Of a stretch of 64,000 bases of DNA, positions 3,596 through 64,000 are shown one piece after another. Position 1 is the stretch's first letter, and every line of letters begins with the position of its first letter. Made by a program: the position numbers and the translations under genes. The notes under the pieces are model-generated. The model did no database searches and was not told where the DNA came from. It saw only the letters and a list, made by a program, of their open reading frames with translations. This stretch comes from a phage, in the NCBI GenBank assembly GCA_024686575.1, contig GCA_024686575.1_4863.1; one strand, 5' to 3'.

Positions 3596-4482
3596 CAGTT
3601 AGCTGTCCCTAAGAACCACGGTGCTGGCTGGCCGATACGGATGGTCAGTGACAGACGATCGTTGGTCTGTGCCAGGTTAGTGAACAGAGAGATGTAGTAC
3701 AACGCTTGCACACCGATAGCTTCGTCGTAGCTGAACTGTGAACCGGTAGCCGACTCACCCGTTTCAGGGGTATCAACGCCAGAGCACAGCGCAATTTCAG
3801 AGATAATCGAACTGCGCGGCGTGCCACGTAGAATCGCCGTCACGTTCATGTATTCCTGAACATCAAACTCAGTCCATGGAATCACCAGGTCTGCGCCCGA
3901 TTCAACATAACGACCGTCGGGGATCTCTACAGTGCCGTCATCGTCGTAATCGTAGTCTGGGAGTTCTTTCGGTACCGGGTTCAGTTCCGCATCGGTATAG
4001 ACGAAATCTTTGACGGTTTCAACACCGTTTTCGCGAGTGATATCCAGGTCAGTGGTCTTCACTGCGCGCATATCGATACGTTTCAGATAGTACGCCCAGT
4101 AATCCCGCGCGCCGATAGTTTCACGAGTACGGAAAGCGTACTGTTTACGTTGCTCATCAGATAAGTCATTATCCAATGTACGCAGTACCAATGGAACGCG
4201 CGAGAACATCCCTGACGTAATCGGGGATTTCGCGACAGGAACAACGTCTGCCACAACATCAGACTGATCAACAATGTGTCCGCGATTGCCTACGCACATG
4301 TATCCTAAATGCGGGCGTGTAGCGCCATCGGGCACTTTCGAGGTCATGAGTTTATAAAACTCGTTCATCGTGGATTTCTGTGGGTACTGCACGTCAGCGC
4401 CTGTCAATAACGCGGTCGTAAGTCGCATCGCGTTAAGAGTCACTGTTGACAGTTTACCATCGTAAACTTTGGTGTTAGCCAT
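3595..4482 (-). CDS. hypothetical protein
   Basis: 295 aa ORF; start overlaps stop of upstream gene; no recognisable motif. Confidence 0.65.
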   Translation of the reverse strand: MANTKVYDGKLSTVTLNAMRLTTALLTGADVQYPQKSTMNEFYKLMTSKVPDGATRPHLGYMCVGNRGHIVDQSDVVADVVPVAKSPITSGMFSRVPLVLRTLDNDLSDEQRKQYAFRTRETIGARDYWAYYLKRIDMRAVKTTDLDITRENGVETVKDFVYTDAELNPVPKELPDYDYDDDGTVEIPDGRYVESGADLVIPWTEFDVQEYMNVTAILRGTPRSSIISEIALCSGVDTPETGESATGSQFSYDEAIGVQALYYISLFTNLAQTNDRLSLTIRIGQPAPWFLGTAN

Positions 4483-10631: not shown

Positions 10632-10671
10632 GATAAAATAAAAAATAATAATAGGAGACCCGAAGGTCTCC
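10632..10671 (-). terminator. rho-independent terminator
   Basis: Hairpin GGAGACC-CGAA-GGTCTCC followed on minus strand by a long T/A-rich run. Confidence 0.65.
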
Positions 10672-10678
10672 GTATTAC

Positions 10679-12386: not shown

Positions 12387-14165
12387 TTAGCGGCCGATTT
12401 TAGCAATGTCTTCTTCGGTCGGTCTGATGTACGGGTCCAGTTTAGGATTCCGCATCATTACCAAACTTGGGTTGGTCTTCATGTACGGGTTGAGGATGTT
12501 TGCCTTAAACGGTGCCGACTTAGGAATATAGTAGACGTTACCGCATTCCAGATGCGACGCGGATGCGTGCTTAGTACGGTCGTTCAAGTTAACGGTCTTG
12601 CCTCCTTTCTTCGAACGCTTAGCATCGGTTTCGGTTTGACCGATGGCGTGCGTAGACACTGCCAATACCATTGATTCTGTAGAGGCATTGAAGAAACTGA
12701 TACCGCCGTTGCTCGTAATGGTGCGCATCACCAGATTGAGCACGATCTGTTTGTTCAGTGCGTCTCGAATAGACTTCGCCGCTGTCTCTGGAGTCCGATG
12801 TTCCAACTGCCCCAGCTTCCAACGTATTTTCGAGATCGTTGTGGTAAAGCCACGTTGACCCAACAGTAGGTAATCGGTTACCGTGAGACGTTTTCCGTAC
12901 ATAGACGGAATATCATCTTGCTTGGTAAGTCGAGTGCGTACCATCAGCTGCGTGGTATACCAGAGGAAATCAAACATATCCAAATCATCAGGGATGGACG
13001 GATCGTTTGCCATCAGCTCACCACGGAAGGTGCTGTTGACATAGCGTTCACATTCCTGGAAGTGGCTGTCCATACTGCGACTCAGTTCGATATCCGAAGG
13101 CTTCAGTCCGCGAATACTGCGGCCCAACACTTCACGCCAAGACGCTGCAGAGTTGAGGTTTGCAATATCTTCGTCCATTGCCATTTCATTAATCTGTGTA
13201 AACAGCCCCGGTAATGTTGGCGCACGACCGTTCTTACTGTTCTGTTTACCTGCGTAGTAGTGCGCTGCTTTGAAGAATGCGGCAGTCGCTACCAGCAACA
13301 GATGTTCGTTTTGATCCCAACGCCCTGCATCGGTGTTAGGCATATCTTCACGTTTAACCAACAGCACGTACTGGATGGTCTTCGCGAGTTGTGGCTCACC
13401 GGATTGAATCACCACATACTTCGTTAAGTCCACATCACGTACTTTAATCGCTGGCCAAATCGCCACATCAACGCCCGCATAACGCTTCACGGCTTGTTTA
13501 AAGCCATAACGCCCAAAGAGCCAATACATCAGTGGCTTCTCATCTGTGTCGTGTCCAATCTGTCCAGTGGAGACAAACAGATTCGATGTACCCGGCAAGA
13601 ACAGCTGCTCAGGGCGACCATTCACCAGAATCTTCGTTGGTTTCTTACAGAACTTGATAGACACCTTGCGAGTGAAGTCAAAGTTAATAAAGATACCGCC
13701 GTGCTCACGACATATACCAGGTTGATGGATTACAGGTGCTACGTGGTACGTTGTACCATAGTAGTTCATTAAGCCGCCACGACGAATAAACGGCAGGCTC
13801 ATTGGTCGTTGCACCGGGCGAGGATCACCTGGAACTCGGAACGAGGCCATTACCATATACGTGTCAGTGGATGAGATGTTAATAATTGACCGGCCACGAT
13901 TATTTCGTGAATTGTTATCCGACTTCGATAACTTAAAGATAAAAGCTTCAAACGGCGACATTTGGCGACAACCTAATACCGTTAACCCTTCTGGTAATTT
14001 CGGGTTATCGATTTCATCATACGTCAACTCACGACGTAGAATGGTTGCCACACGATCATGTATCCCATCTTTAGCTTGTGTGTACCCAACTCCTTCTGCA
14101 ATTGCACGATTAAAAGGCACTATTTCGCCTGCCTCTTTAATCTTCCTAATCGCATCTTTAAACAC
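12387..14165 (-). CDS. hypothetical protein
   Basis: 592 aa ORF; no recognisable motif by eye. Confidence 0.7.
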   Translation of the reverse strand: MFKDAIRKIKEAGEIVPFNRAIAEGVGYTQAKDGIHDRVATILRRELTYDEIDNPKLPEGLTVLGCRQMSPFEAFIFKLSKSDNNSRNNRGRSIINISSTDTYMVMASFRVPGDPRPVQRPMSLPFIRRGGLMNYYGTTYHVAPVIHQPGICREHGGIFINFDFTRKVSIKFCKKPTKILVNGRPEQLFLPGTSNLFVSTGQIGHDTDEKPLMYWLFGRYGFKQAVKRYAGVDVAIWPAIKVRDVDLTKYVVIQSGEPQLAKTIQYVLLVKREDMPNTDAGRWDQNEHLLLVATAAFFKAAHYYAGKQNSKNGRAPTLPGLFTQINEMAMDEDIANLNSAASWREVLGRSIRGLKPSDIELSRSMDSHFQECERYVNSTFRGELMANDPSIPDDLDMFDFLWYTTQLMVRTRLTKQDDIPSMYGKRLTVTDYLLLGQRGFTTTISKIRWKLGQLEHRTPETAAKSIRDALNKQIVLNLVMRTITSNGGISFFNASTESMVLAVSTHAIGQTETDAKRSKKGGKTVNLNDRTKHASASHLECGNVYYIPKSAPFKANILNPYMKTNPSLVMMRNPKLDPYIRPTEEDIAKIGR

Positions 14166-15181: not shown

Positions 15182-15220
15182 TGAGCATCCCAGTAATAAT
15201 ACCAAAAGAATTATTCACGT

Positions 15221-15235
15221 AGATAATATCTATCT
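15221..15235 (-). promoter_or_regulatory. conserved motif 2 (plus AGATAATATCTATCT; inverted repeat AGATA-N5-TATCT)
   Basis: Exact 15-mer present four times in the window; here about 45 nt upstream of the ATG at 15181. Confidence 0.5.
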
Positions 15236-15286
15236 CAGATTACTTTGGGCACGGGTTCATACCCAGTGCCCGTAACGTAAAAAACT

Positions 15287-15985
15287 TTAGGGTATTAGGC
15301 GTTGGGCTATTTCGCGGAGTTGGTCGCGGGTTAAATCAGCCAACTTCTGGTCGCCGAAGCCCAACTTCAGACCCAGCTCGTACCCAGCTTGCGGATACGT
15401 GTTCGTGTTTGCTACTGAGAGGAGTGCATCGGCTATCTTTACCATCGTTAACTCGAGAGACGCATACGGGGCGGGGATCGGCTGATTCACGATTTGGTAA
15501 TTATAACGCACTGCGGCGTTATCGTAGTCAAACTCCATCCTTCTGCCGAGAACGTTAAACGACTCCGCAGAATAACTACCAAGTGGGTGATTGGCTTTTT
15601 CCCACAAATCTTTCCGTTCAGTAAACCCAGTCGCGAAGTTCTGACGTATGGTGTCGAATATTTGCGTTGCCTGGCTAGGGTGTATATTTTTCAGCTCATT
15701 GTAGTCGTAGTCGGCGATGGAATATAGAGTGAACACAACACCGTTTATATTTAACTGCGGATAATCCATCCGCAGACTGTCATCACCTTGTAAATGAAGT
15801 TCCCACATCCTTACCCACTGCAATATCGCGCTTACCGCATCGTGACTGAGATAAAAATTAGTAGGTTCTTCAGGATTTTCACGGAAGGGAACAGAGCATT
15901 CCGATACAAAAAAGCCGGCTGCCATAAATCCTCTGCCGTCGAACATAGGCGCAACTAATCTTGATTTTTCTAAATTGATTACCAT
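15287..15985 (-). CDS. hypothetical protein
   Basis: 232 aa; AAGGAG Shine-Dalgarno 8 nt upstream of ATG; preceded by the AGATAGATATTATCT motif and the terminator of the upstream gene. Confidence 0.7.
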   Translation of the reverse strand: MVINLEKSRLVAPMFDGRGFMAAGFFVSECSVPFRENPEEPTNFYLSHDAVSAILQWVRMWELHLQGDDSLRMDYPQLNINGVVFTLYSIADYDYNELKNIHPSQATQIFDTIRQNFATGFTERKDLWEKANHPLGSYSAESFNVLGRRMEFDYDNAAVRYNYQIVNQPIPAPYASLELTMVKIADALLSVANTNTYPQAGYELGLKLGFGDQKLADLTRDQLREIAQRLIP

Positions 15986-16025
15986 TACTGTCTCCTTAAG
16001 TTAAAACCGAACGACTCTCTCCCTA

Positions 16026-16040
16026 AGATAATATCTATCT
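16026..16040 (-). promoter_or_regulatory. conserved motif 2, copy downstream of the 766 aa gene terminator
   Basis: Exact 15-mer 41 nt upstream of the ATG at 15985, immediately after the terminator U-run. Confidence 0.5.
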
Positions 16041-22842: not shown

Positions 22843-22868
22843 TCACCTAGGTAATATATATCTGAAAT
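22843..22868 (-). promoter_or_regulatory. conserved promoter-like motif 1 (minus-strand reading contains TATATATTACCTAGGTGA)
   Basis: 26-nt exact repeat TCACCTAGGTAATATATATCTGAAAT shared with 31344-31369; lies between a terminator and the first gene of a small-gene operon. Confidence 0.55.
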
Positions 22869-30482: not shown

Positions 30483-30540
30483 TATAAATACTCCTTAAGA
30501 TTAATGGTCGATTACATACGGTTTCAGGCTAACGTAATAT

Positions 30541-31343: not shown

Positions 31344-31369
31344 CTCACCTAGGTAATATATATCTGAAA
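31344..31369 (-). promoter_or_regulatory. conserved promoter-like motif 1, second copy
   Basis: Identical 26-mer, with partial conservation of the next 15 nt; located after the paralog-1 terminator and about 50 nt upstream of the ATG at 31302. Confidence 0.55.
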
Positions 31370-52278: not shown

Positions 52279-52662
52279 TTAACTTGCATCGTGTGGAACA
52301 GTCACCCAATCGTGCCATTTTTCAGAGTAAAGACGATAAGCCATCTTTGGATTCTGATCGACACTACCGGCCGGGTTCTCATTCCACAACACGTACGTAT
52401 ATAACTCGTACGACGAAGTGTTACGGATACTTGACGTGCGGGTGACGTAGTACGTCAACCCGCGTTGGTTAAGGAACAGGCCGCTGTAATGTTCAGTGAC
52501 CATGTAGTAGTGAAACGCCTGGTTGATAGTGGCGTCGGTACAGAGTTTCTTAGCGACGTCTTCTACGCCGGGATACGCCTTTAGAATGTTTTCGAGAAAA
52601 CTTGCTAAAGTCATTCCGATGTAGGGTGGCAGCGGCTCTGCTGGACGCGGCGGAGTGAGCAT
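52279..52662 (-). CDS. hypothetical protein
   Basis: 127 aa ORF with AAGGAA Shine-Dalgarno before ATG at 52662; overlaps the 3-prime end of the helicase ORF by about 113 nt in another frame. Confidence 0.5.
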   Translation of the reverse strand: MLTPPRPAEPLPPYIGMTLASFLENILKAYPGVEDVAKKLCTDATINQAFHYYMVTEHYSGLFLNQRGLTYYVTRTSSIRNTSSYELYTYVLWNENPAGSVDQNPKMAYRLYSEKWHDWVTVPHDAS

Positions 52663-55294
52663 GTGATTTCCTTACAACGTAGGGGGATGTCGCAATACGG
52701 AACGACAATACGACATCCTTGAGTGATTTCTGACGGGCATTCAGGTAATTGCAATGCTTCGGTACGTTATACGCATGGAATAACCACACCGTTGGGTCTA
52801 TTTCACCCCATTCGTTGTGGAGAATCTTACGTGGACGACCGGCCATCTGTTCGTTCAGTTGCTGGTCTTCTACCGGGGTTGAGATGTACATGTGTACCAA
52901 CCCAGGTTTATCGACCGCAGTCCCCGCTTTCCCCGGTGTGGAGATAGAGAAGTCTGCTTGGATAAAGTCGTCATACGAATCGCCTGCATTATATTTCGCC
53001 ACCATCAGTGGATGGAATACAGGGTCACGCGATAACTTATCTTTCACATACTCGGTAAAGAACTCACACATCGCTACCGTAGCAAAGAGTATCAAACATT
53101 TTTGGCCAGGCTGATACCGTTTAAGAAACGATTTCTCAACCACATCCCAGATCATGTTTGCGTATTCTAAATGCAAGTTCTCTTTAATCAGCTTCCCTTC
53201 GAAGAGCTTGTGGTTATACGGCGTCATCTTCGACGCCCACCACGCAAACTTCTTATCATCCAGTCGATAGTACAACGCCTTCACGTCAACCACCGGAATG
53301 ATTGGAATACTGATTCGGTACTCCATTGGGAAACGTTCTAAATACCGCTCCGCGATAAAGGCTTTACTGCTACCCGGCTTAAGAGTTGCAGACATCTCTA
53401 TCGATGCCGGCGGATTCAACATTATACCAGCCATGTAAACGAGGTGAAAATGCTCGTGCACCTCATCCATCGCCACCAGACCCACACCCAGAACATCATA
53501 AAACGTATCCAGGTCCACAGGGTTAGTCGCAGCAGTGTTAATGTACTCCTTCAGGAAACGCTGTAGAGAGACCGTGGGGAGGATTATTACCTTAATACCA
53601 CGACTATCTAGCTCTCCCGACTTACCCATCTCCAGTGCGTCGTAAATCGCCTGTACGCCTGTACAAACTAACACCTCGTCACGAAGTATACGAAGTCCTG
53701 TTTCATCATCACAGACGTCAAACAGCCATTTGGGAACGTACGACGGACGGTGAATCAATGCGGTACGGGTTCCCCGTTTAACCATCGACTTCATACAGGT
53801 CTTGGTGTTGTGCGTAACAATCCACTGTCCCAGAACGTACAGATGTTCATCGTTGTCGACAGTAATGCACGAACCATGACTCTTCCCAACATACACGATA
53901 GACTTAACACGGAGTTTCAGTGTATCGTTGTATTGACCGTTGTCGCGACACAGCGCTTTCTTACGCGGGAGGTTGAACAGCATTGAAGGTGTCTTGTGCC
54001 TAATGAACACCATATAAGCCAATTTACCTTCTCTACGTTCTCCTTTGTAAGTAAAGAACGGACGTTTTGTGGATATAGTTGCAATACCACCTAACGATCT
54101 CACCAACTCCTGGACGCCCAACGCCAGCGACTCGCTGGTGCTACAATACGACGGCTGCCCTCCATCTTTATTCACGGTTCCGTCCGTGTCCATTAAACCG
54201 CGCAGCAGCTCCCAGCGTTGCTCAATCGAGCCTTCAAAATATTCATCCGGAATATATTTTCTATCAGACCCTTTCCCTAGAAGACCGTGGTCCTGCAAAT
54301 AGAGCGGCCAGGACATCGGCACTTCACGTCTGCGACGACGCATTCTATACTGATAACGATCGGCGGGAACCATCTCGGTATCGTCAGGTAAATACTTCCT
54401 CACCAGCTCGACAGTTTCTGGATCGGCTGATGTGAAGCCTACCGCGCCATTTTCACAGGCGTGGCCGTTTCCCAAGAATGCCCCCATGAGATACGGATGT
54501 ATTTTAAAGCACTTTTCACTTGTCTCTTCCGGTTCAGGTAACGGAATGTAGACTCGCGGGTTCGGCATTGCAATCAGTCGCTGAATTTCTTCCGTACTTC
54601 TTACCTGCCACCGAGTGTTTGGTGTGGTATTGACGTAGTAGGATTGCCAGAGATGCTCTTTACCGACCACAGTCTTACGTCCGTCAGCAAAAGTTATCTC
54701 GTAAAAATCCCAATCTTCATGCGGGTACACCGCCGTCACATTCGTCGGCTTCCCATCCCTACCGATTACCACATCCCCGACTTCTAGCTCTCCATGTAAT
54801 TTCCACCCACCAGGAATCCTTACACGCTGATCCCATCTACAGACCTTTCCTCTTCCTGTTTGTATCGCGAAAACCGTTTGTGAACGCGATGGATCTGTTG
54901 CGGCGGCTACGACTTCATTCTGATAATAGAAACGCGACTCTGGGTCTGTTTCTTCCATCTTGAATCCGTAATTATCAAACGTGCACTTATAAGGTTCTGC
55001 ACGTTCAGGATGGTGCTCTGTTAGCTTGTACTGAAAAGCGTATTCAATTGCTGCTCGTTGGAGGATATGTTTAATCTTCTCAGCGAACACTTTATGGAAA
55101 ATGAACGTCCTTAAAGACGGAATGTGAGCGTAGTACGCGTCACCGCGTTCCGTAGTTATTCGTCCATGTTGCTTGCCCATCTTTGGGGCGTGCATATTCT
55201 CTTCGGCCCACGCGAGTATGGCCCTTTCAGCCTGGCGGATAGGGACTTCAACCCGTACCCCCATACTCGTGTAAGTCATTTGAATTTCTACCAT
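52550..55294 (-). CDS. DExH-box (SF2-type) helicase/ATPase interrupted by an intein
   Basis: 914 aa from ATG at 55294 (GAGG Shine-Dalgarno; track N-terminal extension rejected); Walker-A-like AIQTGRGKV, motif II AMDEVHEH, motif III SAT; about 345 aa intein inserted after GRGKV. Confidence 0.75.
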   Translation of the reverse strand: MVEIQMTYTSMGVRVEVPIRQAERAILAWAEENMHAPKMGKQHGRITTERGDAYYAHIPSLRTFIFHKVFAEKIKHILQRAAIEYAFQYKLTEHHPERAEPYKCTFDNYGFKMEETDPESRFYYQNEVVAAATDPSRSQTVFAIQTGRGKVCRWDQRVRIPGGWKLHGELEVGDVVIGRDGKPTNVTAVYPHEDWDFYEITFADGRKTVVGKEHLWQSYYVNTTPNTRWQVRSTEEIQRLIAMPNPRVYIPLPEPEETSEKCFKIHPYLMGAFLGNGHACENGAVGFTSADPETVELVRKYLPDDTEMVPADRYQYRMRRRRREVPMSWPLYLQDHGLLGKGSDRKYIPDEYFEGSIEQRWELLRGLMDTDGTVNKDGGQPSYCSTSESLALGVQELVRSLGGIATISTKRPFFTYKGERREGKLAYMVFIRHKTPSMLFNLPRKKALCRDNGQYNDTLKLRVKSIVYVGKSHGSCITVDNDEHLYVLGQWIVTHNTKTCMKSMVKRGTRTALIHRPSYVPKWLFDVCDDETGLRILRDEVLVCTGVQAIYDALEMGKSGELDSRGIKVIILPTVSLQRFLKEYINTAATNPVDLDTFYDVLGVGLVAMDEVHEHFHLVYMAGIMLNPPASIEMSATLKPGSSKAFIAERYLERFPMEYRISIPIIPVVDVKALYYRLDDKKFAWWASKMTPYNHKLFEGKLIKENLHLEYANMIWDVVEKSFLKRYQPGQKCLILFATVAMCEFFTEYVKDKLSRDPVFHPLMVAKYNAGDSYDDFIQADFSISTPGKAGTAVDKPGLVHMYISTPVEDQQLNEQMAGRPRKILHNEWGEIDPTVWLFHAYNVPKHCNYLNARQKSLKDVVLSFRIATSPYVVRKSHAHSAASSRAAATLHRNDFSKFSRKHSKGVSRRRRRR
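53807..54841 (-). mobile_element. intein with LAGLIDADG homing-endonuclease domain
   Basis: Starts with Cys after the P-loop and ends VLGQWIVTHN followed by Thr; LAGLIDADG-like motifs YLMGAFLGNGHA and LLRGLMDTDGTV; in frame within the helicase ORF. Confidence 0.7.
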
Positions 55295-55304
55295 GCTGCC
55301 CCTC

Positions 55305-55337
55305 TTCGCACAAAAAAAGAGGGGCGCAAGGCCCCTC
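55305..55337 (-). terminator. rho-independent terminator or attenuator between RNAP genes and helicase gene
   Basis: Stem GAGGGGC/GCCCCTC followed on minus strand by TTTTTTTGTG; helicase Shine-Dalgarno and ATG follow within about 12 nt. Confidence 0.65.
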
Positions 55338-55340
55338 GGT

Positions 55341-57446
55341 TTACAACTCAATTACCACAGCGGCTCCTAGGTCATCGTACAACGATGCCGGGATTTTGTA
55401 CTCGGTATAAAAACCAACGCGATCGATATTCCCCTGCTGTCCTTCAAACAACAACATCGGAATTGCCGAGCGCAAACTAATGAGCGTGTTGTGATCGACA
55501 AACCGTTTCCCTGTAGCGTTAGTAGAATCCTCACTGTCAAATCCTACTGCCGGGAACGGATTGGTTGGCGACTCTACACGAGATATCGCCAACATAATCG
55601 CAATGTGCGTCATCGGTATACCACTCAGCTTACGCTGGATATACTTAAACGTGTCCATCAACGCATAAGTACACTGTTTCTCTGTAGCACCACCCATTTC
55701 AACCAACGTCACCGGTTTCACACGACCTTGTTTCTTGTTCAGCTTCACAGTCGAGGCTGTGTTGATGATTTCCACAATGTCTTCGTTCTTATCGGCAGCA
55801 ATCGAACGGAGCTTGGTTTCTAAGCCGGCTACGAACTCCGCCATCGATTCAGAACGGTTGGTGTAGACCAGGACCGGGTGTTTCGGGTTCCATCCTTTTA
55901 AGGGGATTTCTACCGTCTTCTTCTCGATACGAATGTTCGCTCGTTGTTTCAAGAAGTAGTGCAGGAACGGTTTAGAGAAGTTCCCACAAACACCCATTCG
56001 CACATCGATAGAATCCGCAGCGATTATCTGCCCATCTTCTAAACGACGTTGGAAAGTTAAGTCGGTGATTTCTGGTAATGCCGTTTCATCAATTGCATCG
56101 AGATCTTCATGATACGCAATCTGGCTCAGCTCCGAATAAACTTTGTCGGTAACAACCAACTCGTATTCTGACCAATTCCCACGCTGTGGTTTTGGCAGCA
56201 AGCACAACCCTTTCAGAGAGTTATGTTTGTATTCGGTCATATACTCACGCATACGTGGGGTGAGTACCAGGTTGAGCAGATAACGCAAGAAGTCAAGGTG
56301 CTTGGTAGAGAGAATTCCCTGTGTACCCTTTTCCGAGATGGACGTGGATGCCAGGTGACCTGGTGACGTACCTTCAGAGAGGTTATAAATCAAATCCCCC
56401 ATACAGGTCGCACAGATGGACTGATTCGCCATCTCTTTACAGGTCATGGCACTACGGAAGACCAGCGGTTTGCCAACCAGGTCTGCGTATCCGCCTTTCT
56501 CAAATCGCAACCACGGACCATTATCGCCTTCTAAACGATAACGCATCCCCACCATCGCTTTATAGGCACGCTCATCCAGCTGCGTATCCTTAAACGTGTA
56601 GCGGTGTGCGTGTGTTGTACCGCAGTCGTCGTACGTGAAATACATCAGTACGTTTGCTGCCAGCTGCAGTTTACGTGAGGCGTATTCTGCTTCGGCAATC
56701 TTGTCAGTGTTGTACAGGTGGGAACGTGAAGTTGCACCAGATTCTTTCAAACGCGAAATAACCGAATGCATTCCGGTAAAGAAGCCTTCCCACACCTGAT
56801 TGGTGTATACACGTGAGTCAATTTCTGACGTTTTGCCGCGCACGAACGCTTGCAGTACCTGGTTCATCTTCACGGTACCGTCCAGTACCGACATTACGAC
56901 TGGGTTATACCGCAGCGCAGGGTCTTTGAAGATTTTCTCGATAAGCTTATACGCTTCTTCAACCATATCCTGACCATCTTCATCGTAGCCAGTAGGATAC
57001 TGCACTTCCCACTGACGGATGAGTTCGAAGTTCGGGTGGTCGTAGATCTCCATCATCGTATCAAAGTCGATTGTCGTACAATAGGACAGCAAGTTCTTCA
57101 CTGTCATGTTGAACGCATCGGCGTAGACATGTTGACTCAGGATATAACGCGTTTCAGCAAGGTCGACACCTGCTTTACGGGCCAGTACCGCTGCTTCCGA
57201 CATAAAGTCCAGATGCAGGTCATCTGTTGCTACCTGACCTGGACGATACGCCATGGTCGATGGAGTGGGCACCTGCGGATACAGACGCGACACACCCCAA
57301 TACGGCCAGCTGAGTTTGATGTGGCGACTAGACATTTCCAACGACTTACCATCGTCGAAAGTCACGTAATAACGCCCGCGTAGTTTCCACACCTGATCAG
57401 AGTTAAGCATACGCAAATCACGTACGTGTACAGAACGACCCGCCAT
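55341..57446 (-). CDS. multisubunit RNA polymerase beta-prime-like subunit, C-terminal part
   Basis: 701 aa; ASTSISEKGTQGILSTKH matches the beta-prime trigger-loop signature AAQSIGEPGTQLTMRTFH; preceded by a Cys cluster (C-x8-C-x2-C) as in the C-terminal Zn site of beta-prime. Confidence 0.7.
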   Translation of the reverse strand: MAGRSVHVRDLRMLNSDQVWKLRGRYYVTFDDGKSLEMSSRHIKLSWPYWGVSRLYPQVPTPSTMAYRPGQVATDDLHLDFMSEAAVLARKAGVDLAETRYILSQHVYADAFNMTVKNLLSYCTTIDFDTMMEIYDHPNFELIRQWEVQYPTGYDEDGQDMVEEAYKLIEKIFKDPALRYNPVVMSVLDGTVKMNQVLQAFVRGKTSEIDSRVYTNQVWEGFFTGMHSVISRLKESGATSRSHLYNTDKIAEAEYASRKLQLAANVLMYFTYDDCGTTHAHRYTFKDTQLDERAYKAMVGMRYRLEGDNGPWLRFEKGGYADLVGKPLVFRSAMTCKEMANQSICATCMGDLIYNLSEGTSPGHLASTSISEKGTQGILSTKHLDFLRYLLNLVLTPRMREYMTEYKHNSLKGLCLLPKPQRGNWSEYELVVTDKVYSELSQIAYHEDLDAIDETALPEITDLTFQRRLEDGQIIAADSIDVRMGVCGNFSKPFLHYFLKQRANIRIEKKTVEIPLKGWNPKHPVLVYTNRSESMAEFVAGLETKLRSIAADKNEDIVEIINTASTVKLNKKQGRVKPVTLVEMGGATEKQCTYALMDTFKYIQRKLSGIPMTHIAIMLAISRVESPTNPFPAVGFDSEDSTNATGKRFVDHNTLISLRSAIPMLLFEGQQGNIDRVGFYTEYKIPASLYDDLGAAVVIEL

Positions 57447-59683
57447 TATTTATCCTCCCGAATTGGACGCACTAATTCAAAACCTTCACAGCGATGGATG
57501 TTACGTATCATCCTGTCAATCTGCGAATCACCCATTGGCAGTTTCTTACGATCGACCAGCACCCCTGGATTGGTTGGTGTTGGCGAGTTATACAGCCCCG
57601 TTACGATCGCACGGTGTACCGCAGGGTTATTAGCGCGGTCATGAGTTTCGGGGAAGTTGCCCGGACCAAAGCCGTCGGTAAGACGCTGCTCGGAAGGACC
57701 ACCCCACTTCAACCCTTTCAGGTTAATCGGATATGAACCACGTCCTTGGTTGGATGCATCAATACAACCCAAATAGTTCGTGTACATCGACGAGATACTG
57801 GAGAACTCACGACCGGTTTTATCCAGGCGCAGAGTCTCTACCATGCCGACGTAAAACTGGTTCTTCGTCCACTCTTTCTCACCCTGATAGTTAGTAATCA
57901 GTAGCTTAGACTTGCGTGGTGCATACTCGCCTAGAGCACGGCAGATTTCTACCTGGGTAGCATTCAATTCGTGGGGAAGCCAGATACGAATCGTGAAGTC
58001 GTAAATCTCTTTAAAGAGTTCCAGACGTGACCCAGTATCCGGGTGACTGGCATTGAGATAGAATGTCCAGCGTGGGTTATAGCGATCGATATAGTCCATC
58101 AGGATTTCCCAGGCTTCATCAACCTGGTTGGCGGCAAGTAAAGGTTTCAACCGCATCTTCAACTGCTCGGATGCAGCAGACCAATACATGTGGAACAGCG
58201 CAGCATAAGTCGAACGACGAATTACGGCGTTCATGGAACGAATGACATGCACACGTTCTCCGAACTCGTTAATCGGCATTTCTTCATCAGGCCGCACTGC
58301 GCCCACGATACCTTTTGTACCTGAACGGTCGGTGATTTTCGATGAGACGGTAACTGGGATTGGATAACGTACCACGATGCGTATCGTGTAACTACCAATT
58401 GGGTCCCAGAGACCACGCTGAACCGGCTGCGCCAGTTTGTTTAACACGTTCTTATCAGCAGAACGGTTATACTCGCCTTTACGCATGGCTTCATCGTATT
58501 CACGACCAATCTCTTCACGGAAGTCGTTATAGACTTCATACGTCTCAGAACAGAACGCCTTGTCAAGAATCTCAAACGCTTTCGGTGACCAGACGATATT
58601 CTTGTCCTTGGACATCGCAAAATAGAACCGTACGATATCATTGTAAAAACGTTTCAAAGCGTTCGCGTAGTGATCTAACTCGCGTTTGTTCTCTTCGGTA
58701 CATGCGATATTGTTAACACCACGATCGCATTTGGTTTCGTCCCGCCATACCTGAATATCAACGACACGAGAACCGGTACGTTCCATCTTTTCAAAGTCGC
58801 CAGCCAGTCGCGCTTTGTAATGCTCAGGGTCGGCATCAACATACTCACAACGGTCGAAGTGCGGAGAGACATGTTGTGTTTCACCTACGTGCGAGTCAAT
58901 GGCTGCCCATAGCTTATCGAAACGGCGCGCGGCAATAACCAACCCATCATCACGAATTGCCTGTCCTTTATTGGGCAGGTACTGTGGTCGACGAACGCCA
59001 TCAATACCCGTTGTCCCATACGTATCAAGCAGGTACTCGTCGTCGCGCAAGGTAAAGTCGATTGCACGCAAACCATAAGCGTGCATCGCTTTCGCTGCAG
59101 TTTCGGAGATGGTGTACGAGTCCTCGATAATGTCCGGGTGCGACATCGTCACGGTGTGCAGGTTGACCCCATCGACAAACTCACCGTCTTTCTGTGCCGG
59201 CAGCACGGTAAGCATTTCATCTTTTTCCAGGTGCTGCGTCTGCCCGCGCAGCAACGCCTGAAGTTTCCCAGTAGCCTCTTTCTTAGACGAGAAAATGTTA
59301 TCGTGGTTGGTGTAATACTTAATATCGATTACATCAATCATCACTTTGCGCTGGTTGGTTAAATCTGCGCGCGTGAAGAAGATAACATGTTGGAGCGGTT
59401 CGTGATCCCCTTCACGACCATAGCGTGCAAAAACAGCTGCACGAGTAACACCTTCTTTGGTTGTGTAACTGCACACGGTACCACTGTCTTCCACGATATC
59501 GTTAAAACAATAATCGTGGTAGTTCACATCAGCGCCGGTAAAATGGATAGTCGGATCTGGATTGTCCAGTGGTACCGCCGACTTCATATGTCCACCCACC
59601 ATTGAGGCACGTGCCCCAGATACGCCAGTGATATTCACCTCACGGTCAGCAACGCTTGACATGAGTTCGACTGGTGTTTTCAT
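57446..59683 (-). CDS. multisubunit RNA polymerase beta-like subunit, C-terminal part
   Basis: 745 aa; ITDRSGTKGIVGAVRPDEEMP matches the beta signature [20 protein letters not shown]; C-terminal GGPSEQRLTDGFG resembles GGQRFGEMEVWA; stop overlaps the start of the beta-prime-like gene. Confidence 0.7.
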   Translation of the reverse strand: MKTPVELMSSVADREVNITGVSGARASMVGGHMKSAVPLDNPDPTIHFTGADVNYHDYCFNDIVEDSGTVCSYTTKEGVTRAAVFARYGREGDHEPLQHVIFFTRADLTNQRKVMIDVIDIKYYTNHDNIFSSKKEATGKLQALLRGQTQHLEKDEMLTVLPAQKDGEFVDGVNLHTVTMSHPDIIEDSYTISETAAKAMHAYGLRAIDFTLRDDEYLLDTYGTTGIDGVRRPQYLPNKGQAIRDDGLVIAARRFDKLWAAIDSHVGETQHVSPHFDRCEYVDADPEHYKARLAGDFEKMERTGSRVVDIQVWRDETKCDRGVNNIACTEENKRELDHYANALKRFYNDIVRFYFAMSKDKNIVWSPKAFEILDKAFCSETYEVYNDFREEIGREYDEAMRKGEYNRSADKNVLNKLAQPVQRGLWDPIGSYTIRIVVRYPIPVTVSSKITDRSGTKGIVGAVRPDEEMPINEFGERVHVIRSMNAVIRRSTYAALFHMYWSAASEQLKMRLKPLLAANQVDEAWEILMDYIDRYNPRWTFYLNASHPDTGSRLELFKEIYDFTIRIWLPHELNATQVEICRALGEYAPRKSKLLITNYQGEKEWTKNQFYVGMVETLRLDKTGREFSSISSMYTNYLGCIDASNQGRGSYPINLKGLKWGGPSEQRLTDGFGPGNFPETHDRANNPAVHRAIVTGLYNSPTPTNPGVLVDRKKLPMGDSQIDRMIRNIHRCEGFELVRPIREDK

Positions 59684-59713
59684 TCGTAAATGCTCCTTTT
59701 GGTTACCTCGGTA

Positions 59714-59728
59714 AGATAATATCTATCT
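59714..59728. promoter_or_regulatory. conserved motif 2 in divergent intergenic region
   Basis: Exact 15-mer between the RNAP beta-like gene start (59683) and the plus gene start (59750); could serve either or both. Confidence 0.5.
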
Positions 59729-59749
59729 GTTTTATTTTAAGGAGAGACG

Positions 59750-60073
59750 ATGCTAGATAAATTTGCTACCTTATCCGAAATAATACCTTCGCCTGATTCG
59801 ACCAAGTATAAGGTGTTGCATGACTATACAGACTTCCTTCGCAAACACCCAGATACTACAGAAGAAGTTGTTGACCCAAAATATGCCTACCCAGAGGTAC
59901 ACAGTTTCTACGCGTACTGTCGTCTCAAACAGTACGATAATAGTATTATTTATCCGATGATGTTAATGAACGGAATTTCTACTCCGTTCGATTTCACGCC
60001 AGAGATAAGAACCTTATTGGTTCCTAGTGTCGGTGTGGTAAGTAACATCTTATCGACTATCGTAGAATCTTGA
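59750..60073 (+). CDS. hypothetical protein
   Basis: 107 aa ORF; AAGGAGAG Shine-Dalgarno; the AGATAATATCTATCT motif lies 21 nt upstream; bidirectional terminator after stop. Confidence 0.65.
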   Translation: MLDKFATLSEIIPSPDSTKYKVLHDYTDFLRKHPDTTEEVVDPKYAYPEVHSFYAYCRLKQYDNSIIYPMMLMNGISTPFDFTPEIRTLLVPSVGVVSNILSTIVES

Positions 60074-60105
60074 AAAAAAGAAGGGACGCCCAGTCCCTTC
60101 TTTCT
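60072..60105. terminator. bidirectional terminator
   Basis: Stem GAAGGGAC/GTCCCTTC with A-run upstream and short T-run downstream, between convergent genes. Confidence 0.65.
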
Positions 60106-60110
60106 AACGC

Positions 60111-61478
60111 TTAACGTAAATTAGCTGATGAGAATGGTAGGTTGCCTAAACTGCTGCTACTTCCGCCACCTAAACCACCCAGACCACCTAACACGTCACT
60201 ACTCCCTCCTAAGAGGTTGGTGCTACCGCCGCCCAACTGCGTGCTACCCCCCAAGAGATTATTACTACTTCCCAGCAAACCAGAACCCAGACCACTTTCT
60301 TTCGTCACCGCATTACCACGCAGCGCTTCACCGAGAGACAGTTCTTTAATTGTCCCTTTCGGTAAATGGCCGTTGTTCTCACGCAGCGCTTCCTGAATCT
60401 TCGGTGCTAACGCATTGAAGCTATTAGCCGAAGACGCCTGTTGCGCTTTCTTCGCACGGAAATAGTTTACCGGATCATTGAGATCAAGATTTTCCTGCGG
60501 AGCTTGTTGAGAAGCTAAAGCAACGACCGGCTTTGTGCCGGCAGGTGTACGCCCGATACGGAAATCTGTTGCGGTGGTGTCTGTTGCCTGATCGTTACGT
60601 GGGCCGGTATTATACGGCAGAGTTTGGATAACGTTATCATAAACGCTCATGTTATCCAGTTGGCCAATCCATTCTTCTTCTAACGGACGCAGTGGAGTGT
60701 GGTCACGCAGACCACGAACCACTTGATTGTAGTTGGTCACGTATTGTGCCCAACCGCGTGCCAAAGAACCGAAGTACGGACGCGGATCGTTAGAACCAGT
60801 AACCGAAGGATACCAACCAAACACTGCAGTTAGCAGGTTAAAGATAATGACCTTATCCTGCTTACGCTGGAGCTTGGCACCGAAGAATGTTGCCGTACCA
60901 TCCAGTGACTCTTCTTCAAACATGTGTTTGTAGTTCGCCACGCGGATATATTTGATACCCTCAATGGTCATATCGCTGGAGATGAAGATACTGGTGATCT
61001 TTGTCTTTTTATCTTCTTCCAGCAAACCGTAAACATAGTTCTTCACCGCTTGCCAGCTCTGAACCAGTTTCTTATCCATCGTCGGATCTTTCAGGTCAGC
61101 ACAAACCACATCGCTTAAAAACTTCTTGTAAGCTGCCAGACGGATATTCTTTCCTTCGGCTGCTGTTTCCAAAATAGCATCGATTAGCTCGAAGCTTTTC
61201 AGGAAGAGGTTCGCGTTGATGGCTTTCTTCAGGAAGCGAATCGTTCCAGATTCGCCAGCCAGTACCGATTCACACAGTGGGTGGAACGCATGACACTCAC
61301 TACCTTCATCGTCTTCCAACCCACGCTTAATCATCGCTGCAGTTGGAAGCACCAAGCGGCGCTTCACTTTGTTGTAGGTGAACATTGCTGGATGACCATC
61401 ATCGATAGTCAGCATGTCACCTTCGAATCCGTATCCGAGAGAGGTCAGAAACGAACGGTAGAATTCAATCAATTTCAT
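60111..61478 (-). CDS. hypothetical protein with Gly/Leu/Ser-rich C-terminal tail
   Basis: 455 aa; C-terminus LGSGLLGSSNNLLGGSTQLGGGSTNLLGGSSDVLGGLGGLGGGSSSSLG; terminator downstream. Confidence 0.7.
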   Translation of the reverse strand: MKLIEFYRSFLTSLGYGFEGDMLTIDDGHPAMFTYNKVKRRLVLPTAAMIKRGLEDDEGSECHAFHPLCESVLAGESGTIRFLKKAINANLFLKSFELIDAILETAAEGKNIRLAAYKKFLSDVVCADLKDPTMDKKLVQSWQAVKNYVYGLLEEDKKTKITSIFISSDMTIEGIKYIRVANYKHMFEEESLDGTATFFGAKLQRKQDKVIIFNLLTAVFGWYPSVTGSNDPRPYFGSLARGWAQYVTNYNQVVRGLRDHTPLRPLEEEWIGQLDNMSVYDNVIQTLPYNTGPRNDQATDTTATDFRIGRTPAGTKPVVALASQQAPQENLDLNDPVNYFRAKKAQQASSANSFNALAPKIQEALRENNGHLPKGTIKELSLGEALRGNAVTKESGLGSGLLGSSNNLLGGSTQLGGGSTNLLGGSSDVLGGLGGLGGGSSSSLGNLPFSSANLR

Positions 61479-61490
61479 GGTTAATAATCC

Positions 61491-63191
61491 TTAATCAATG
61501 AGACCGTTGCCGAGTCCGTTTCCGCCTATACCGCCTAAGCCACCACCCAGGTCAAGACCTCCAAGAGGATCTAAGCCACCTGTGTTAGTTGGAATGTTAG
61601 ATAGCATTCGACCCCGGCCTTGGCCTTTCTCGAATTCTGTATAACCTTCTTCCACGGCTTTCAGCAGCGTTGCAGTGTTCTGTGCCAGCTCACCAACGTA
61701 TTTGAGATCGGTGGTGTTGCCGGTATGGAGACGGAATTGCATAAACGACGCGTAGGTGTAATATTCCAGCGGTTCGTCGTCGACACGGATTTCAATACGA
61801 GTAACGGTCCCCAACAATGCGGTGACCAGCATGTGACAGCGAATATGGTTATGTTTAGTAACCTGAACCATCGCTTCTTTCATGTTCTGCAAGAAACGAC
61901 GACCTAATGCAGCAGGTAACTGATGATGTGTGATGCTGCTGACTGAGTTAGGAATAACTTCCAACGTAGGCTCTATCATGATATCCGTGTTACGGTTATC
62001 AAAGACAAAGCTCACTTCGCCAATCAGGTTACGTGACATAATCGGCCCGATAGACATAGCCAGATCATACGCAACTAGACTACCCTGAGTAGAAAAGCCG
62101 TTACGTCCAATCCAGTGGTCGGTTTGGTTAACCAGCCCTGCACCCAACCCACGGCGACTTGCCAGCGCCAGCGATTCACGGATACATTCATCCAACCGCA
62201 TTGGGTTGACAATCGCATTACGCAAATCAGCCAAACGGAACGTCGCCTTACTGGTTGCTTTCCAACCGCCAGATACATCAGACATCCCGTTCTGGAGTGC
62301 TTGACGCATCGCAGCAATCAGTTCGTGGTTGCTGTAGTTACGGATAACACCACGCTGCTTCAATTCAGATTCAACGCCGATGGAGTTATTACCTGCAAAG
62401 AAGCTTTCCACGCTACCGAGTTCGGTATCTACCCCAGAGCTTGCCAGATACGCATTACTGATTGCAGATACGTAGTTTTCCGGACGCTGGAGTTGGGATA
62501 CCATCAACTGTGGTGCAGAGCTACTGGTTGCGGATAGCACAGAGTCGCTCGTTGGAACGAACTTCTCACCGCTATTCATTTCAATACGTTTTACCATATC
62601 CGCTGCTTTCGCGATCGAAATGATATCTACCGTACTTTCTGTTTGACCTTCAACAGACAGCGCTTTCGATAAAACGTAGTTATCCAGTAGACGGAATGAG
62701 TCTGGGTTCAATGTTTTGCCGCCCAGGGCATCGTGTGTATACGTTGCCTGTAAGCCGTAGATGTCGTTAATGTACAACACCATATCGTCCGGCAGCAGGC
62801 TACCCAGGCTGGTTTCTGCCTGACTGGTATAACCGGAGACGATGTATTGCGTTTCCTGAGTGCGTGTTGCATTCAGAGGTTTAGCAATAAACACCGCCAC
62901 GAAGTTAAAGATACCGGTATCACGTGATTCCCATTGGAACTGTACAGGACGATTGTCATCATCGGACACGTTGATGAATGGACGCTCAAAACCGTTCTGG
63001 GTGCCATCGAAGCCCACGATGGCAGATAATGCTTCTTGATACTGCTGTGTTCCCACAGCTTTTTCCCCGCCCAGTTCAACCGCTGCTGCTAAGTCATCCA
63101 GTGCACCCGTCGATGCGTTAAAGCCGATGCGGCGACGAACTTGCTCTGGAACATCGTAGACCGGATACATCAGTAGATTTACAAGCTGCAT
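61491..63191 (-). CDS. hypothetical protein with Gly/Leu-rich C-terminal tail
   Basis: 566 aa; AAGGAG Shine-Dalgarno 9 nt upstream; C-terminus GGLDPLGGLDLGGGLGGIGGNGLGNGLID. Confidence 0.7.
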   Translation of the reverse strand: MQLVNLLMYPVYDVPEQVRRRIGFNASTGALDDLAAAVELGGEKAVGTQQYQEALSAIVGFDGTQNGFERPFINVSDDDNRPVQFQWESRDTGIFNFVAVFIAKPLNATRTQETQYIVSGYTSQAETSLGSLLPDDMVLYINDIYGLQATYTHDALGGKTLNPDSFRLLDNYVLSKALSVEGQTESTVDIISIAKAADMVKRIEMNSGEKFVPTSDSVLSATSSSAPQLMVSQLQRPENYVSAISNAYLASSGVDTELGSVESFFAGNNSIGVESELKQRGVIRNYSNHELIAAMRQALQNGMSDVSGGWKATSKATFRLADLRNAIVNPMRLDECIRESLALASRRGLGAGLVNQTDHWIGRNGFSTQGSLVAYDLAMSIGPIMSRNLIGEVSFVFDNRNTDIMIEPTLEVIPNSVSSITHHQLPAALGRRFLQNMKEAMVQVTKHNHIRCHMLVTALLGTVTRIEIRVDDEPLEYYTYASFMQFRLHTGNTTDLKYVGELAQNTATLLKAVEEGYTEFEKGQGRGRMLSNIPTNTGGLDPLGGLDLGGGLGGIGGNGLGNGLID

Positions 63192-63203: not shown

Positions 63204-64000
63204 TTAAGAATTAAACCATTCAACTTCTTCTAACTTGCGACGTGCATTCAACACCATAAACTCCGCCAGGCTATTGTGCAGTGACAAGTGAGGTATATAG
63301 TTTGGCTGATCCGTCTCACACTTCAGCAGCGCAGCTGCTTCTGGTGTAGCCCTGAGATGGAACAGATACGGGTTGATGTGATCCTTGTGTAACAAGGTCA
63401 GTGATTCCCGTGGTGTAGATTGCGGTTCGAGATTACGCGGGTTGCGATACTCCTGAAGATAATATCTATCTAAATCTGCTTTGAGTTCAGATCGAATTGG
63501 GTCGGCTGCATAACCGGCAGACATCTCAGAACGCACCATATTGCAACTTAACAGTTGCGCAACGTCATACATTCCATAATTGAGATAAGTTGCCTGTGCT
63601 AACGCCATGCCGTAGCGAAACGCTTCTGGTCCACATTCGGTATACGTCTTATAATGCGCGCTACGATGGAGTGCTAATGCGACTAACCATTCGTGGAGCG
63701 TATAGACAGGACCGTCGTGTGTTGCCAGTTGCGAATCAATCAATAACTTAACATCTGCTGGAGCGGCATTATCCAGGCGCATTGTTTTCAAGAAAGAGCG
63801 GTATTCTTTAAATACGTACTCGGTACGGACGTATTCTTTCATCTGGGCAGGAGAACGTGCCTGCACCAAATCCATGGCGTTTATCTTACCCTTTTCGCCA
63901 TTGAATATCACACTTTCTGGATGCGCTTTTAACAGCACCGGCTGGTTAGAGATTTTGTTTGCAAAACCTGTTTCAATCTCTTGTTTAACCAGAAAATACA
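63204..64000 (-). CDS. hypothetical protein, 5-prime partial (continues beyond window end)
   Basis: Track ORF starts at a GTG at 63938, but the frame stays open to the window end; contains an internal copy of the AGATAGATATTATCT motif. Confidence 0.55.
   Translation of the reverse strand, partial: YFLVKQEIETGFANKISNQPVLLKAHPESVIFNGEKGKINAMDLVQARSPAQMKEYVRTEYVFKEYRSFLKTMRLDNAAPADVKLLIDSQLATHDGPVYTLHEWLVALALHRSAHYKTYTECGPEAFRYGMALAQATYLNYGMYDVAQLLSCNMVRSEMSAGYAADPIRSELKADLDRYYLQEYRNPRNLEPQSTPRESLTLLHKDHINPYLFHLRATPEAAALLKCETDQPNYIPHLSLHNSLAEFMVLNARRKLEEVEWFNS
63457..63471 (-). promoter_or_regulatory. conserved motif 2, intragenic copy
   Basis: Exact 15-mer inside the coding sequence of 63204-64000 (encodes DRYYL), about 270 nt upstream of the next gene start at 63191. 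Confidence 0.35.

Follow-up and report, generated by a model that had tools for sequence, protein, structure and literature searches.

The 64 kb stretch of DNA that was analysed (the window) belongs to an SPN3US-like (Seoulvirus) Salmonella jumbo phage: it is 98.7% identical to Salmonella phage SPN3US, of which it covers roughly 24.7-87.9 kb in reverse orientation, and its segment 59200-60300 shows 100% identity to Salmonella phage SaP7. SPN3US is one of the jumbo phages related to phiKZ; it forms a phage nucleus and has two multisubunit RNA polymerases (RNAPs). SPN3US-like phages are in use as a genetic model of jumbo phages and are being considered for Salmonella control.

The 66-nt intergenic region 59684-59749 separates two divergent genes and contains the 15-mer AGATAATATCTATCT (59714-59728, plus strand), which reads AGATAGATATTATCT on the strand of the RNAP gene. 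The motif lies 30 nt from the ATG of the minus-strand RNAP gene (59684-59713) and 21 nt from the ATG of the small plus-strand gene (59729-59749); a previous sequence-only reading of this DNA had given 31 nt for the first distance and the correct value for the second. That reading had also assigned a Shine-Dalgarno sequence to each gene and described the motif as near-palindromic. Both features are present: AAGGAG is found upstream of the minus-strand gene and again at 59739-59744 on the plus strand, and the motif has the arms AGATA and TATCT around 5 nt, with GATAATATC forming a 9-bp palindrome. It had further been proposed that the motif could drive both genes and so couple the expression of an RNAP subunit to that of the small gene. 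The features discussed below are listed in Table 1.

Table 1. Positions of genes, predicted promoter features and motif copies in the window.
Feature	Position	Strand	Basis or remark
SPN3US gp35 homolog, non-virion RNAP beta'-like	55341-57446	-	phrog_3015, E 6e-241
SPN3US gp34 homolog, 745 aa, non-virion RNAP beta-like	57446-59683	-	phrog_3295, E 4e-268; PHIKZ071 homolog
Predicted 5' UTR of RNAP gene	59684-59708	-	26 nt counting start G; AAGGAG 59693-59698
Predicted transcription start, G then A, of gp34-gp35 mRNA	59709	-	6 nt past 13-mer AGATAGATATTAT
Full oriented element, putative promoter	59709-59738	-	23-site SPN3US alignment; 37.0 bits
Core 15-mer of putative promoter	59714-59728	-	exact copy of consensus AGATAKATATTAYCT
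SPN3US gp33 homolog, 107 aa, probable small inner-baseplate (upper wedge) protein	59750-60073	+	phrog_3455, E 3e-35
G+C-rich hairpin between convergent gp33 and gp32	60077-60103	both	folding; conserved in relatives
Exact motif copy, 43.2 bits, predicted +1 at 15216	15221-15235	-	heads gp76-gp77 operon
Exact motif copy, 42.9 bits, predicted +1 at 16021	16026-16040	-	40 nt upstream of ORF 15287-15985
Variant motif copy AGATATATATTACCT, 42.2 bits, predicted +1 at 22844	22849-22863	-	heads small-gene run, SPN3US gp66 onward
Variant motif copy AGATATATATTACCT, 43.1 bits, predicted +1 at 31346	31351-31365	-	heads gp55 operon
Exact motif copy, 34.6 bits, predicted +1 at 63452	63457-63471	-	inside gp30 homolog CDS

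The assignment of the minus-strand gene as RNAP beta-like was borne out by profile and structure comparisons. When gp34 was compared with solved structures, the best match was to PHIKZ071 (chain C in 7ogp, the non-virion RNAP of phiKZ), with an E value of 2e-29. The gp34 stop codon and the gp35 start codon overlap by 1 base, and the two genes are therefore probably co-transcribed.

The cluster of non-virion RNAP genes is split into two units, each headed by the motif: gp30-gp32 and gp34 onward. The gp31-gp32 pair is preceded by gp30, whose product is homologous to the sigma-like fifth subunit, PHIKZ068. An ORF at 63204-63938 (244 aa, GTG start) was considered as a truncated gp30 and rejected: the frame is open to the edge of the window, as in SPN3US, and since the translated frame runs on to this edge, the short ORF is an edge effect of the ORF list.

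Between the two units lies the hairpin at 60077-60103, with folding energies of -17.3 and -19.3 kcal/mol on the two strands and z-scores of about -4 for both. In the RNA of the minus strand the hairpin (-19.3 kcal/mol, z = -4.0) is followed by UUUUUUU, and by this folding model it would terminate the gp30-gp32 operon. Because the hairpin and U-tract would end that operon, a fresh promoter is needed for gp34. A simple terminator consensus scan of 59300-60300 missed this hairpin, which is clear by folding.

The small plus-strand ORF, gp33, is a real, conserved gene. Orthologs sharing 25 invariant residues occur in nine of nine phages of four genera, and in the window the gene has a good Shine-Dalgarno sequence (AAGGAGAG, 59739-59746), abutting the upstream end of the promoter, and a hairpin after its stop codon. 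The family profile matches Goslar gp172, annotated 'Inner Baseplate Protein', with an E value of 1.5e-4 over 80/107 positions. The cryo-EM study of Goslar assigns gp172 to the inner baseplate, where it sits in the upper wedge against the last tail sheath layers; its gene occupies the same antisense slot, adjoining the RNAP beta gene gp171. Unannotated gp33 homologs were found in the same slot in PhiPA3 and, in phiKZ, at NC_004629 62670-63044 on the minus strand.

Other searches with gp33 were less productive. The structure predicted from a shallow alignment had moderate confidence (pLDDT 73), and Foldseek of this model against the PDB returned no significant match, the top one being a phage P1 baseplate chain (E 1.5, TM 0.50). 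A Pfam search gave no match, and a word-indexed protein search returned only close relatives. As fold and Pfam searches were unproductive, the baseplate call, a weak one, rests on the Goslar gp172 match and on gene order, which make gp33 a probable baseplate protein. As a structural protein it would be expected late, transcribed by the non-virion RNAP, which is the opposite of co-expression with the RNAP genes.

The motif was next considered as a family. The window holds four exact copies of the 15-mer and two copies of a variant, AGGTAATATATATCT (the 22849 and 31351 copies in Table 1). When up to three mismatches were allowed, 7 matches were obtained, compared with 0.92 +/- 0.95 in shuffled sequences, and none of 100 shuffles reached 7; about 1e-4 exact 15-mers would be expected by chance in the window, as an arithmetic estimate. 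All six copies share one orientation, towards the minus strand, a point absent from the sequence-only reading. Five of the six lie upstream of a minus-strand gene. The 16026-16040 copy is located directly past the capsid gene terminator, the gp55 operon headed by the 31351 copy includes the dihydrofolate reductase gene gp58, and the product of gp77 (12387-14165), homologous to PHIKZ123, is a non-virion RNAP subunit. The copies are not all typical: the one at 63457 lies within a coding sequence, far from the next start codon (about 265 nt upstream of the gp31 start).

The whole SPN3US genome was then scanned for sequences with up to three mismatches to AGATAKATATTAYCT, followed by a position-weight matrix. 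This yielded 23 sites, all on the coding strand of the following gene; no independent site pointing opposite to the following gene was found in the whole SPN3US genome. The distance from the end of the core to the start codon was 30-139 nt with two exceptions: the copy internal to gp30 (265 nt) and the copy at 72486 (237 nt), where SPN3US is without an ORF that the window has and the corresponding distance in the window is 40 nt. All but one of the 23 copies (22/23) are intergenic, and several lie directly past terminator hairpins.

These observations bear on the idea that the motif is a repeat with no role in transcription, such as a mobile-element remnant or a recombination site. Two copies do flank a 646-nt segment (window 15296-15941) that is missing from SPN3US, and the 63457 copy is inside a gene. 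Such elements would not account for copies that are intergenic, co-oriented, mostly 30-139 nt from a start codon and in several cases right after terminator hairpins, nor for the close resemblance to experimentally defined promoters of related phages described below, and we regard this explanation as extremely unlikely.

Alignment of the 23 SPN3US sites revealed an oriented element of about 30-33 nt, larger than the 15-mer, composed of an A-tract, a T-tract, C, AGATAKATATTAYCT, N4, G and A. An A at position -9 is present in 23/23 sites and opens an A-rich run (-9 to -4); it is followed by a T-rich run (-3 to -1) and by C at position 0 in 16/23 sites. Within the core, position 10 is T in all 23 sites. 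Past the 15-mer, four variable bases precede a G at position 20 (23/23), followed by A at position 21 in 20/23 sites. The 13-mer AGATAKATATTAY, conserved in 16-23 of the 23 sites at each position, spans -19 to -7 from the invariant G, and this G lies exactly 6 nt past the 13-mer in 23/23 SPN3US sites, 6/6 window sites and 9/9 orthologs of the site studied here. The latter reads, on the minus strand, A-tract, T-tract, C, AGATAGATATTATCT, TACC and G, and its limits are set by the invariant A at -9 (59738) and the invariant G (59709).

The matrix separated the sites well from the rest of the genome. The 23 sites scored 28-44.5 bits (21-43 bits in leave-one-out scoring), and the next best matches in 480 kb, both strands included, were only reverse readings of true sites, with at most 21.8 bits. 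The six window sites, all on the minus strand, scored 34.6-43.2 bits.

The architecture of the element is that of a known promoter class. Early promoters of phiKZ-like phages, which are read by a multisubunit virion RNAP injected with the DNA, have an extended (about 10-13 nt), AT-rich and highly conserved core centred near -10 (PMC7598289, PMC5312081). Such elements are detectable bioinformatically in every phiKZ-like phage and proved to be early promoters wherever tested (PMC7598289). In phage AR9 the experimentally supported early consensus is AAATATATATTAT-(6N)-G+1, and the early transcription starts of AR9, phiKZ and phiR1-37 are located 6 nt downstream of the conserved element (PMC5312081). 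Early promoters control the genes for the non-virion RNAP subunits of phiKZ (PMC13282480).

The genes that follow the SPN3US copies agree with such an assignment. They encode small hypothetical proteins, nucleotide-metabolism proteins and non-virion RNAP subunits, and each of the five non-virion RNAP homologs (gp23, gp30, gp34, gp35 and gp77) is the first or second gene past a copy. The gene clusters with the virion RNAP genes, which we take, from Thomas et al. 2016, to include gp42, gp218, gp240 and gp241, have none of the 23 sites upstream of them. The gene cluster with gp244, a virion RNAP gene confirmed in the literature (PMC7598289), likewise has no copy upstream.

The element is also retained at the orthologous position in relatives. 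Nine of nine phages of the genera Seoulvirus, Erskinevirus, Machinavirus and Wellingtonvirus keep the order RNAP gene (minus), small gene (plus), next gene (minus), with an intergenic region of 66-71 nt, and in all nine, across the four genera, the core ATAKATATTATC and the G are directed towards the RNAP gene. The leader stretch GTAACCAAAAGGAG is kept in these relatives. phiKZ and PhiPA3 also carry an element of this class at the corresponding place, upstream of the PHIKZ071 homolog. In Goslar the intergenic region is only 31 nt long and no such element was found there.

Sequence and conservation make the motif a very probable promoter element, and the RNAP beta-like gene is very probably under its control, as the sequence-only reading had proposed for this direction. 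More specifically, we consider it, with a probability of roughly 0.8, to be the oriented core of an early promoter of the virion-RNAP class, acting one way and starting the gp34-gp35 mRNA at 59709. In the literature that could be searched, no transcript mapping, timing data or in vitro transcription was found for SPN3US-like phages; a text search gave no relevant match for the motif strings and nothing on SPN3US gp33 or gp34. The reading polymerase, the start site and the early timing are predicted by analogy with phiKZ and AR9. On this analogy, the invariant G at 59709, which corresponds to position 28988 of SPN3US, would be the first base of the transcript.

A host promoter was considered as well, with TATTAT serving as the -10 hexamer for the sigma-70 RNA polymerase of Salmonella. 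TATTAT is one position away from TATAAT, and the region upstream is A+T-rich; a sigma-70 consensus scan of 59300-60300, however, found nothing in the intergenic region, and neither a conserved -35 hexamer nor a TG extension is present. Conservation over some 30 bp with an invariant G 6 nt past the 13-mer is unlike sigma-70 promoters, and phiKZ-like phages transcribe without the host RNAP. There is thus hardly any likelihood that the motif is a sigma-70 promoter.

The partial symmetry of the motif could also have reflected an operator, that is, a binding site for a dimeric phage DNA-binding protein, for instance one that silences early promoters later in infection. The most common variant holds an 11-bp near-palindrome, AGATA(T)TATCT; SPN3US gp101, itself headed by the motif, is annotated as a 'putative transcriptional regulator'; and early promoters must be silenced once new virion RNAP is made late (PMC5312081). 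The symmetry, however, is not conserved: the T-variant AGATATATATTACCT, seen for example in the copy at 22849-22863, and the Machinavirus sequence GAATATATATTATCT are not palindromic. The most strongly conserved positions fall outside the palindrome, in a one-sided pattern (A at -9, G at +20), and strict co-orientation and a fixed distance to the G are properties of promoters and not of operators. An operator function, alone or in addition, is in our view very improbable.

We return to the early promoter and to the question of whether it works in one direction or in two. Scored with the matrix towards the small gene, the site reaches at most 3.5 bits, in a register that would put +1 at 59742, within the ribosome-binding site; in the register offset by the palindrome it scores -7.9 bits, with +1 at 59729. 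True sites score at least 28 bits (at least 21 bits in leave-one-out scoring). Two invariant bases, A at -9 and T at position 10, are missing from the reverse reading, which also differs at the near-invariant positions 3, 4 and 21. Judged by the matrix and by the invariant positions, the determinants of the promoter are found at 59709-59738 in one orientation and not in both. In AR9, a predicted early promoter one position off the consensus had no associated transcription start (PMC5312081).

A truly bidirectional early promoter, from which the same polymerase would start both ways and co-express the small gene, draws on several features of the site. The reverse reading matches 10/11 of the palindromic positions 5-15, there is a G at the +1 of the offset register, which would give a plausible 20-nt leader with a Shine-Dalgarno sequence, and the 66-nt region yielded no other promoter for the small gene. 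The match is built into the core: except for its central base, the stretch from position 5 to 15 in the common variant (AGATATTATCT) is an 11-bp palindrome, and for this reason the reverse reading at a 4-nt offset always matches 10/11 positions. The base at the reverse +1 varies among the nine relatives (G, G, G, A, A, G, G, C, G), whereas the forward G is present in all nine and in all 23 SPN3US sites.

Seven of the 23 sites (AGATATATATTACCT or AGATATATATTACTT) are not palindromic, and the orthologous Machinavirus sites, GAATATATATTATCT or GCATATATATTATCT, have lost one arm of the palindrome. This makes the symmetry incidental to a core that is AT-rich and alternating. Moreover, 17/23 sites have no opposite-strand gene start within 150 nt and so no opposite gene to serve, and the small gene here probably encodes a virion baseplate protein. 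We consider a bidirectional early promoter quite improbable at this site. Elsewhere in the SPN3US genome two-way pairs may exist, because the site at 191602 (outside the window, between the divergent genes gp220 and gp221) gives a reverse reading of 21.8 bits with a G at +1.

Hence, of the two directions proposed for the motif, the one towards the RNAP gene is very probable, and orientation, asymmetry, matrix score and relatives all speak against the one towards the small gene, which the 59714 copy is unlikely to serve. The two-way, co-regulating reading is unsupported, and so is a coupling of RNAP subunit expression to the small gene, given that the latter is a probable baseplate gene, presumably late. 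Some use of the region in the plus direction may nevertheless occur, because the footprint fills the available space and no other promoter was found: since 59709-59738 occupies the stretch from the Shine-Dalgarno sequence of gp33 to the leader of the RNAP gene, the start of the small-gene transcript must lie in the footprint or upstream of it.

Promoters of a second class, resembling those read by the non-virion RNAP of phiKZ, are expected for a baseplate gene such as gp33. In the SPN3US genome GTATGA and TTTAC were enriched in oriented upstream regions, and the combination TTTAC-N15-T(A/G)TG occurred 26 times at the N15 spacing, compared with 1-7 times at each other spacing from N11 to N20. 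In 15 of the 26 cases the final G lies 15-80 nt before a co-oriented start codon. In the window, minus-strand copies of this combination have their final G at 2302, 15258, 23862 and 30515. No match to TTTAC-N15-T(A/G)TG or to TATG was found on the plus strand 20-80 nt upstream of 59750, and the same place in relatives offered no consistent candidate (TTATGG in Asesino and phiEaH2; TTTG, CTTG or CGTG elsewhere). The searches for sigma-70 promoters, TTTAC-N15-TRTG and GTATGA, and the comparison with relatives, thus gave no promoter of its own for gp33.

The following sequence of events may be proposed. The virion RNAP, injected with the DNA, would read the 59714 copy early, beginning transcription at the G at 59709 and producing a 26-nt leader that carries AAGGAG. 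The resulting mRNA would cover gp34 and gp35 and probably further genes downstream. The second, non-virion polymerase would thereby be made early and would then transcribe middle and late genes. Between the gp30-gp32 terminator and the early promoter, gp33 would form a separate unit; the non-virion polymerase would transcribe it later, starting at a point that overlaps the early promoter footprint or lies upstream of it.

A further possibility is that the back-to-back genes, instead of sharing a promoter, form a conserved temporal switch. SPN3US-like phages, Erwinia phages of three genera, phiKZ and PhiPA3 all have a small baseplate-type gene directly against the early promoter of the RNAP beta gene; the two genes are 66-71 nt apart in the SPN3US-like and Erwinia phages and 68 nt apart in phiKZ. 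Read on its reverse strand, the phiKZ early element contains CTATGAT, which includes a TATG of the late type and lies 36 nt upstream of the small, unannotated ORF. If such a switch exists, late transcription of the baseplate gene would begin within, or extend across, the early promoter and the leader of the RNAP gene. It could then block the early promoter or yield RNA antisense to the leader. Synthesis of the non-virion polymerase would then be turned down once this polymerase is active, a negative feedback through overlapping opposite promoters. We consider this switch unlikely.

The 59714 copy is an ordinary member of a known promoter class, and the accepted picture of phiKZ-like transcription is unchanged by it. 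The analysis provides a usable oriented model of the early promoter of SPN3US-like phages, with 23 sites and their predicted starts, and this model predicts early operons, including those of all five non-virion RNAP subunit genes. It also corrects the notion that the partial symmetry of this motif implies two-way use. Of wider interest are the way in which a late structural gene is expressed against an early promoter and the possible regulatory role of an arrangement found family-wide.

Among known systems, bidirectional or overlapping divergent promoters resemble the site in that two divergent genes share 66 nt and the central element is partly symmetric; they differ in that the conserved features are one-sided here and the reverse reading fails the family's own matrix. 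With the middle and late promoters of phiKZ, whose signatures are TAC(T) near -22 after an A-rich run (middle) and T-3ATG+1 (late), the comparison is to the second class: TTTAC-N15-T(A/G)TG resembles both signatures combined, whereas the 15-mer motif is not of the non-virion RNAP class.

The early promoters of phiKZ (28-32 copies) were mapped by primer extension, RNA-seq and dRNA-seq, whereas the SPN3US-like elements are known from sequence. The consensus also differs, being AGATCTATATTAC-like in phiKZ and AGATAKATATTAYCT here. In both, tens of copies head early operons, including those of non-virion RNAP subunits. The element GAGATCTATATTAC lies 33 nt upstream of PHIKZ068, and AGATAKATATTAY stands here before its homolog gp30; AAGATCTATATCAT is found in the homologous 68-nt region before PHIKZ070.1/071, and AGATAKATATTAY stands here before gp34. 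The leaders are alike as well, TTACCCAAAAGGAGG in phiKZ being the counterpart of GTAACCAAAAGGAG.

Phage AR9 is only distantly related, with uracil-containing DNA and no phage nucleus, and its motif was confirmed by dRNA-seq and primer extension, whereas the SPN3US-type motif was derived from sequence alone. The two elements nevertheless have the same length and architecture, a 13-mer followed by six variable bases and a G start. They are identical at 11/13 core positions when the T-variant AGATATATATTAC is compared, and the positions that match the mismatch-sensitive AR9 consensus are near-invariant in the SPN3US family.

Analysis of the whole SPN3US genome (genome pieces L003-L007) suggested a second promoter-like class, TTTAC-N15-T(A/G)TG, defined by its spacing: 26 occurrences were found with 15 nt between the two elements, against 1-7 at each of the other spacings from 11 to 20 nt. 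In 15 of these 26 occurrences the final G lies 15-80 nt upstream of a co-oriented start codon. Several genes, among them gp76, gp99 and gp125, carry both this motif and the early motif. The copies located in the window are listed in the table.

Positions of the TTTAC-N15-T(A/G)TG copies and of the homologs of the 107-aa gene
Feature	Record	Position	Strand
TTTAC-N15-T(A/G)TG copy	window	TTAC first base 2324, final G 2302	minus
TTTAC-N15-T(A/G)TG copy	window	TTAC first base 15280, final G 15258	minus
TTTAC-N15-T(A/G)TG copy	window	TTAC first base 23884, final G 23862	minus
TTTAC-N15-T(A/G)TG copy	window	TTAC first base 30537, final G 30515	minus
107-aa gene homolog	L016, relative	3932-4285	
107-aa gene homolog	L017, relative	about 3930-4300	+
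107-aa gene homolog	L018, phiKZ	10671-11045	-

Among the sites of this genome, the strongest candidate for a genuine two-way promoter pair lies beyond the limits of the window, where gp220 and gp221 diverge (SPN3US 191602-191620; L006 41602-41620). The reverse reading of this promoter site, GGATAGATAATATCT followed by G at +1, is 31 nt from the gp220 start and scores 21.8 bits, far above all other reverse readings.

The promoter core recurs exactly, and with complete flanks (34.6 bits), at window 63457-63471, minus strand, within the coding sequence of gp30, the PHIKZ068 homolog, where it encodes ...DLDRYYLQE...; the gp31 start follows about 265 nt downstream, and this copy may serve gp31-gp32 as an internal promoter. 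The ORF list gives a 244-aa GTG ORF at 63204-63938. A truncated gp30 was rejected as its explanation: the frame stays open up to the end of the window, just as it does in gp30 of SPN3US (535 aa), and the listed GTG start is an edge effect.

Differences from SPN3US include two segments of the window. The first, 646 nt long (15296-15941), is replaced in SPN3US by 39 unrelated bases; it holds most of ORF 15287-15985 (232 aa, phrog_15414), for which a Pfam search yielded no match, and is flanked by two exact early-promoter copies (16026 and 15221). Both of these promoters, together with the leader of the missing ORF, are kept in SPN3US. The second is a 1.2-kb in-frame segment (53675-54911), in place of 199 nt of SPN3US, within the helicase gene (ORF 52550-55351, minus strand), which codes for 933 aa compared with 568 aa in SPN3US gp36; by gene order, the phiKZ counterpart is PHIKZ075. 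Residues 380-429, within the insert, match a homing-endonuclease domain of the LAGLIDADG type (PF14528, E 1e-9), and the segment looks like an intein.

Sequence comparison identified the 107-aa gene (59750-60073, plus strand) as a probable distant homolog of Goslar gp172, an inner-baseplate (upper wedge) protein. The gene occupies the same antisense position, with the PHIKZ070-like gene on one side and the PHIKZ071-like (RNAP beta) gene on the other, in Seoulvirus, three Erwinia phage genera, Goslar, PhiPA3 and phiKZ. The copies in phiKZ and PhiPA3 are without annotation in the RefSeq records.

In phiKZ, the 68-nt region homologous to the window intergenic region (L018 11034-11101; NC_004629 about 63033-63100) contains AAGATCTATATCATAGTTTT, directed at PHIKZ070.1/071. 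The opposite-strand reading of this element, AAAACTATGAT, carries a late-type TATG and lies 36 nt upstream of the unannotated small ORF. The region may hold an overlapping promoter pair of opposite directions and different temporal class.

Ahead of the RNAP beta gene, the leader sequence GAGGTAACCAAAAGGAG (window 59684-59708, minus strand) is conserved in the Erwinia phages, and GTTA(A/C) occurs 5-9 nt downstream of the predicted start in several other SPN3US early leaders; this may represent a downstream element of the promoter or of the leader. The phiKZ leader CAATTACCCAAAAGGAGG (L018 11078-11098) resembles that of the window. TTTAC-N15-T(A/G)TG, for its part, looks like two phiKZ signatures joined together, that of middle promoters (TAC near -22) and that of late ones (TATG).
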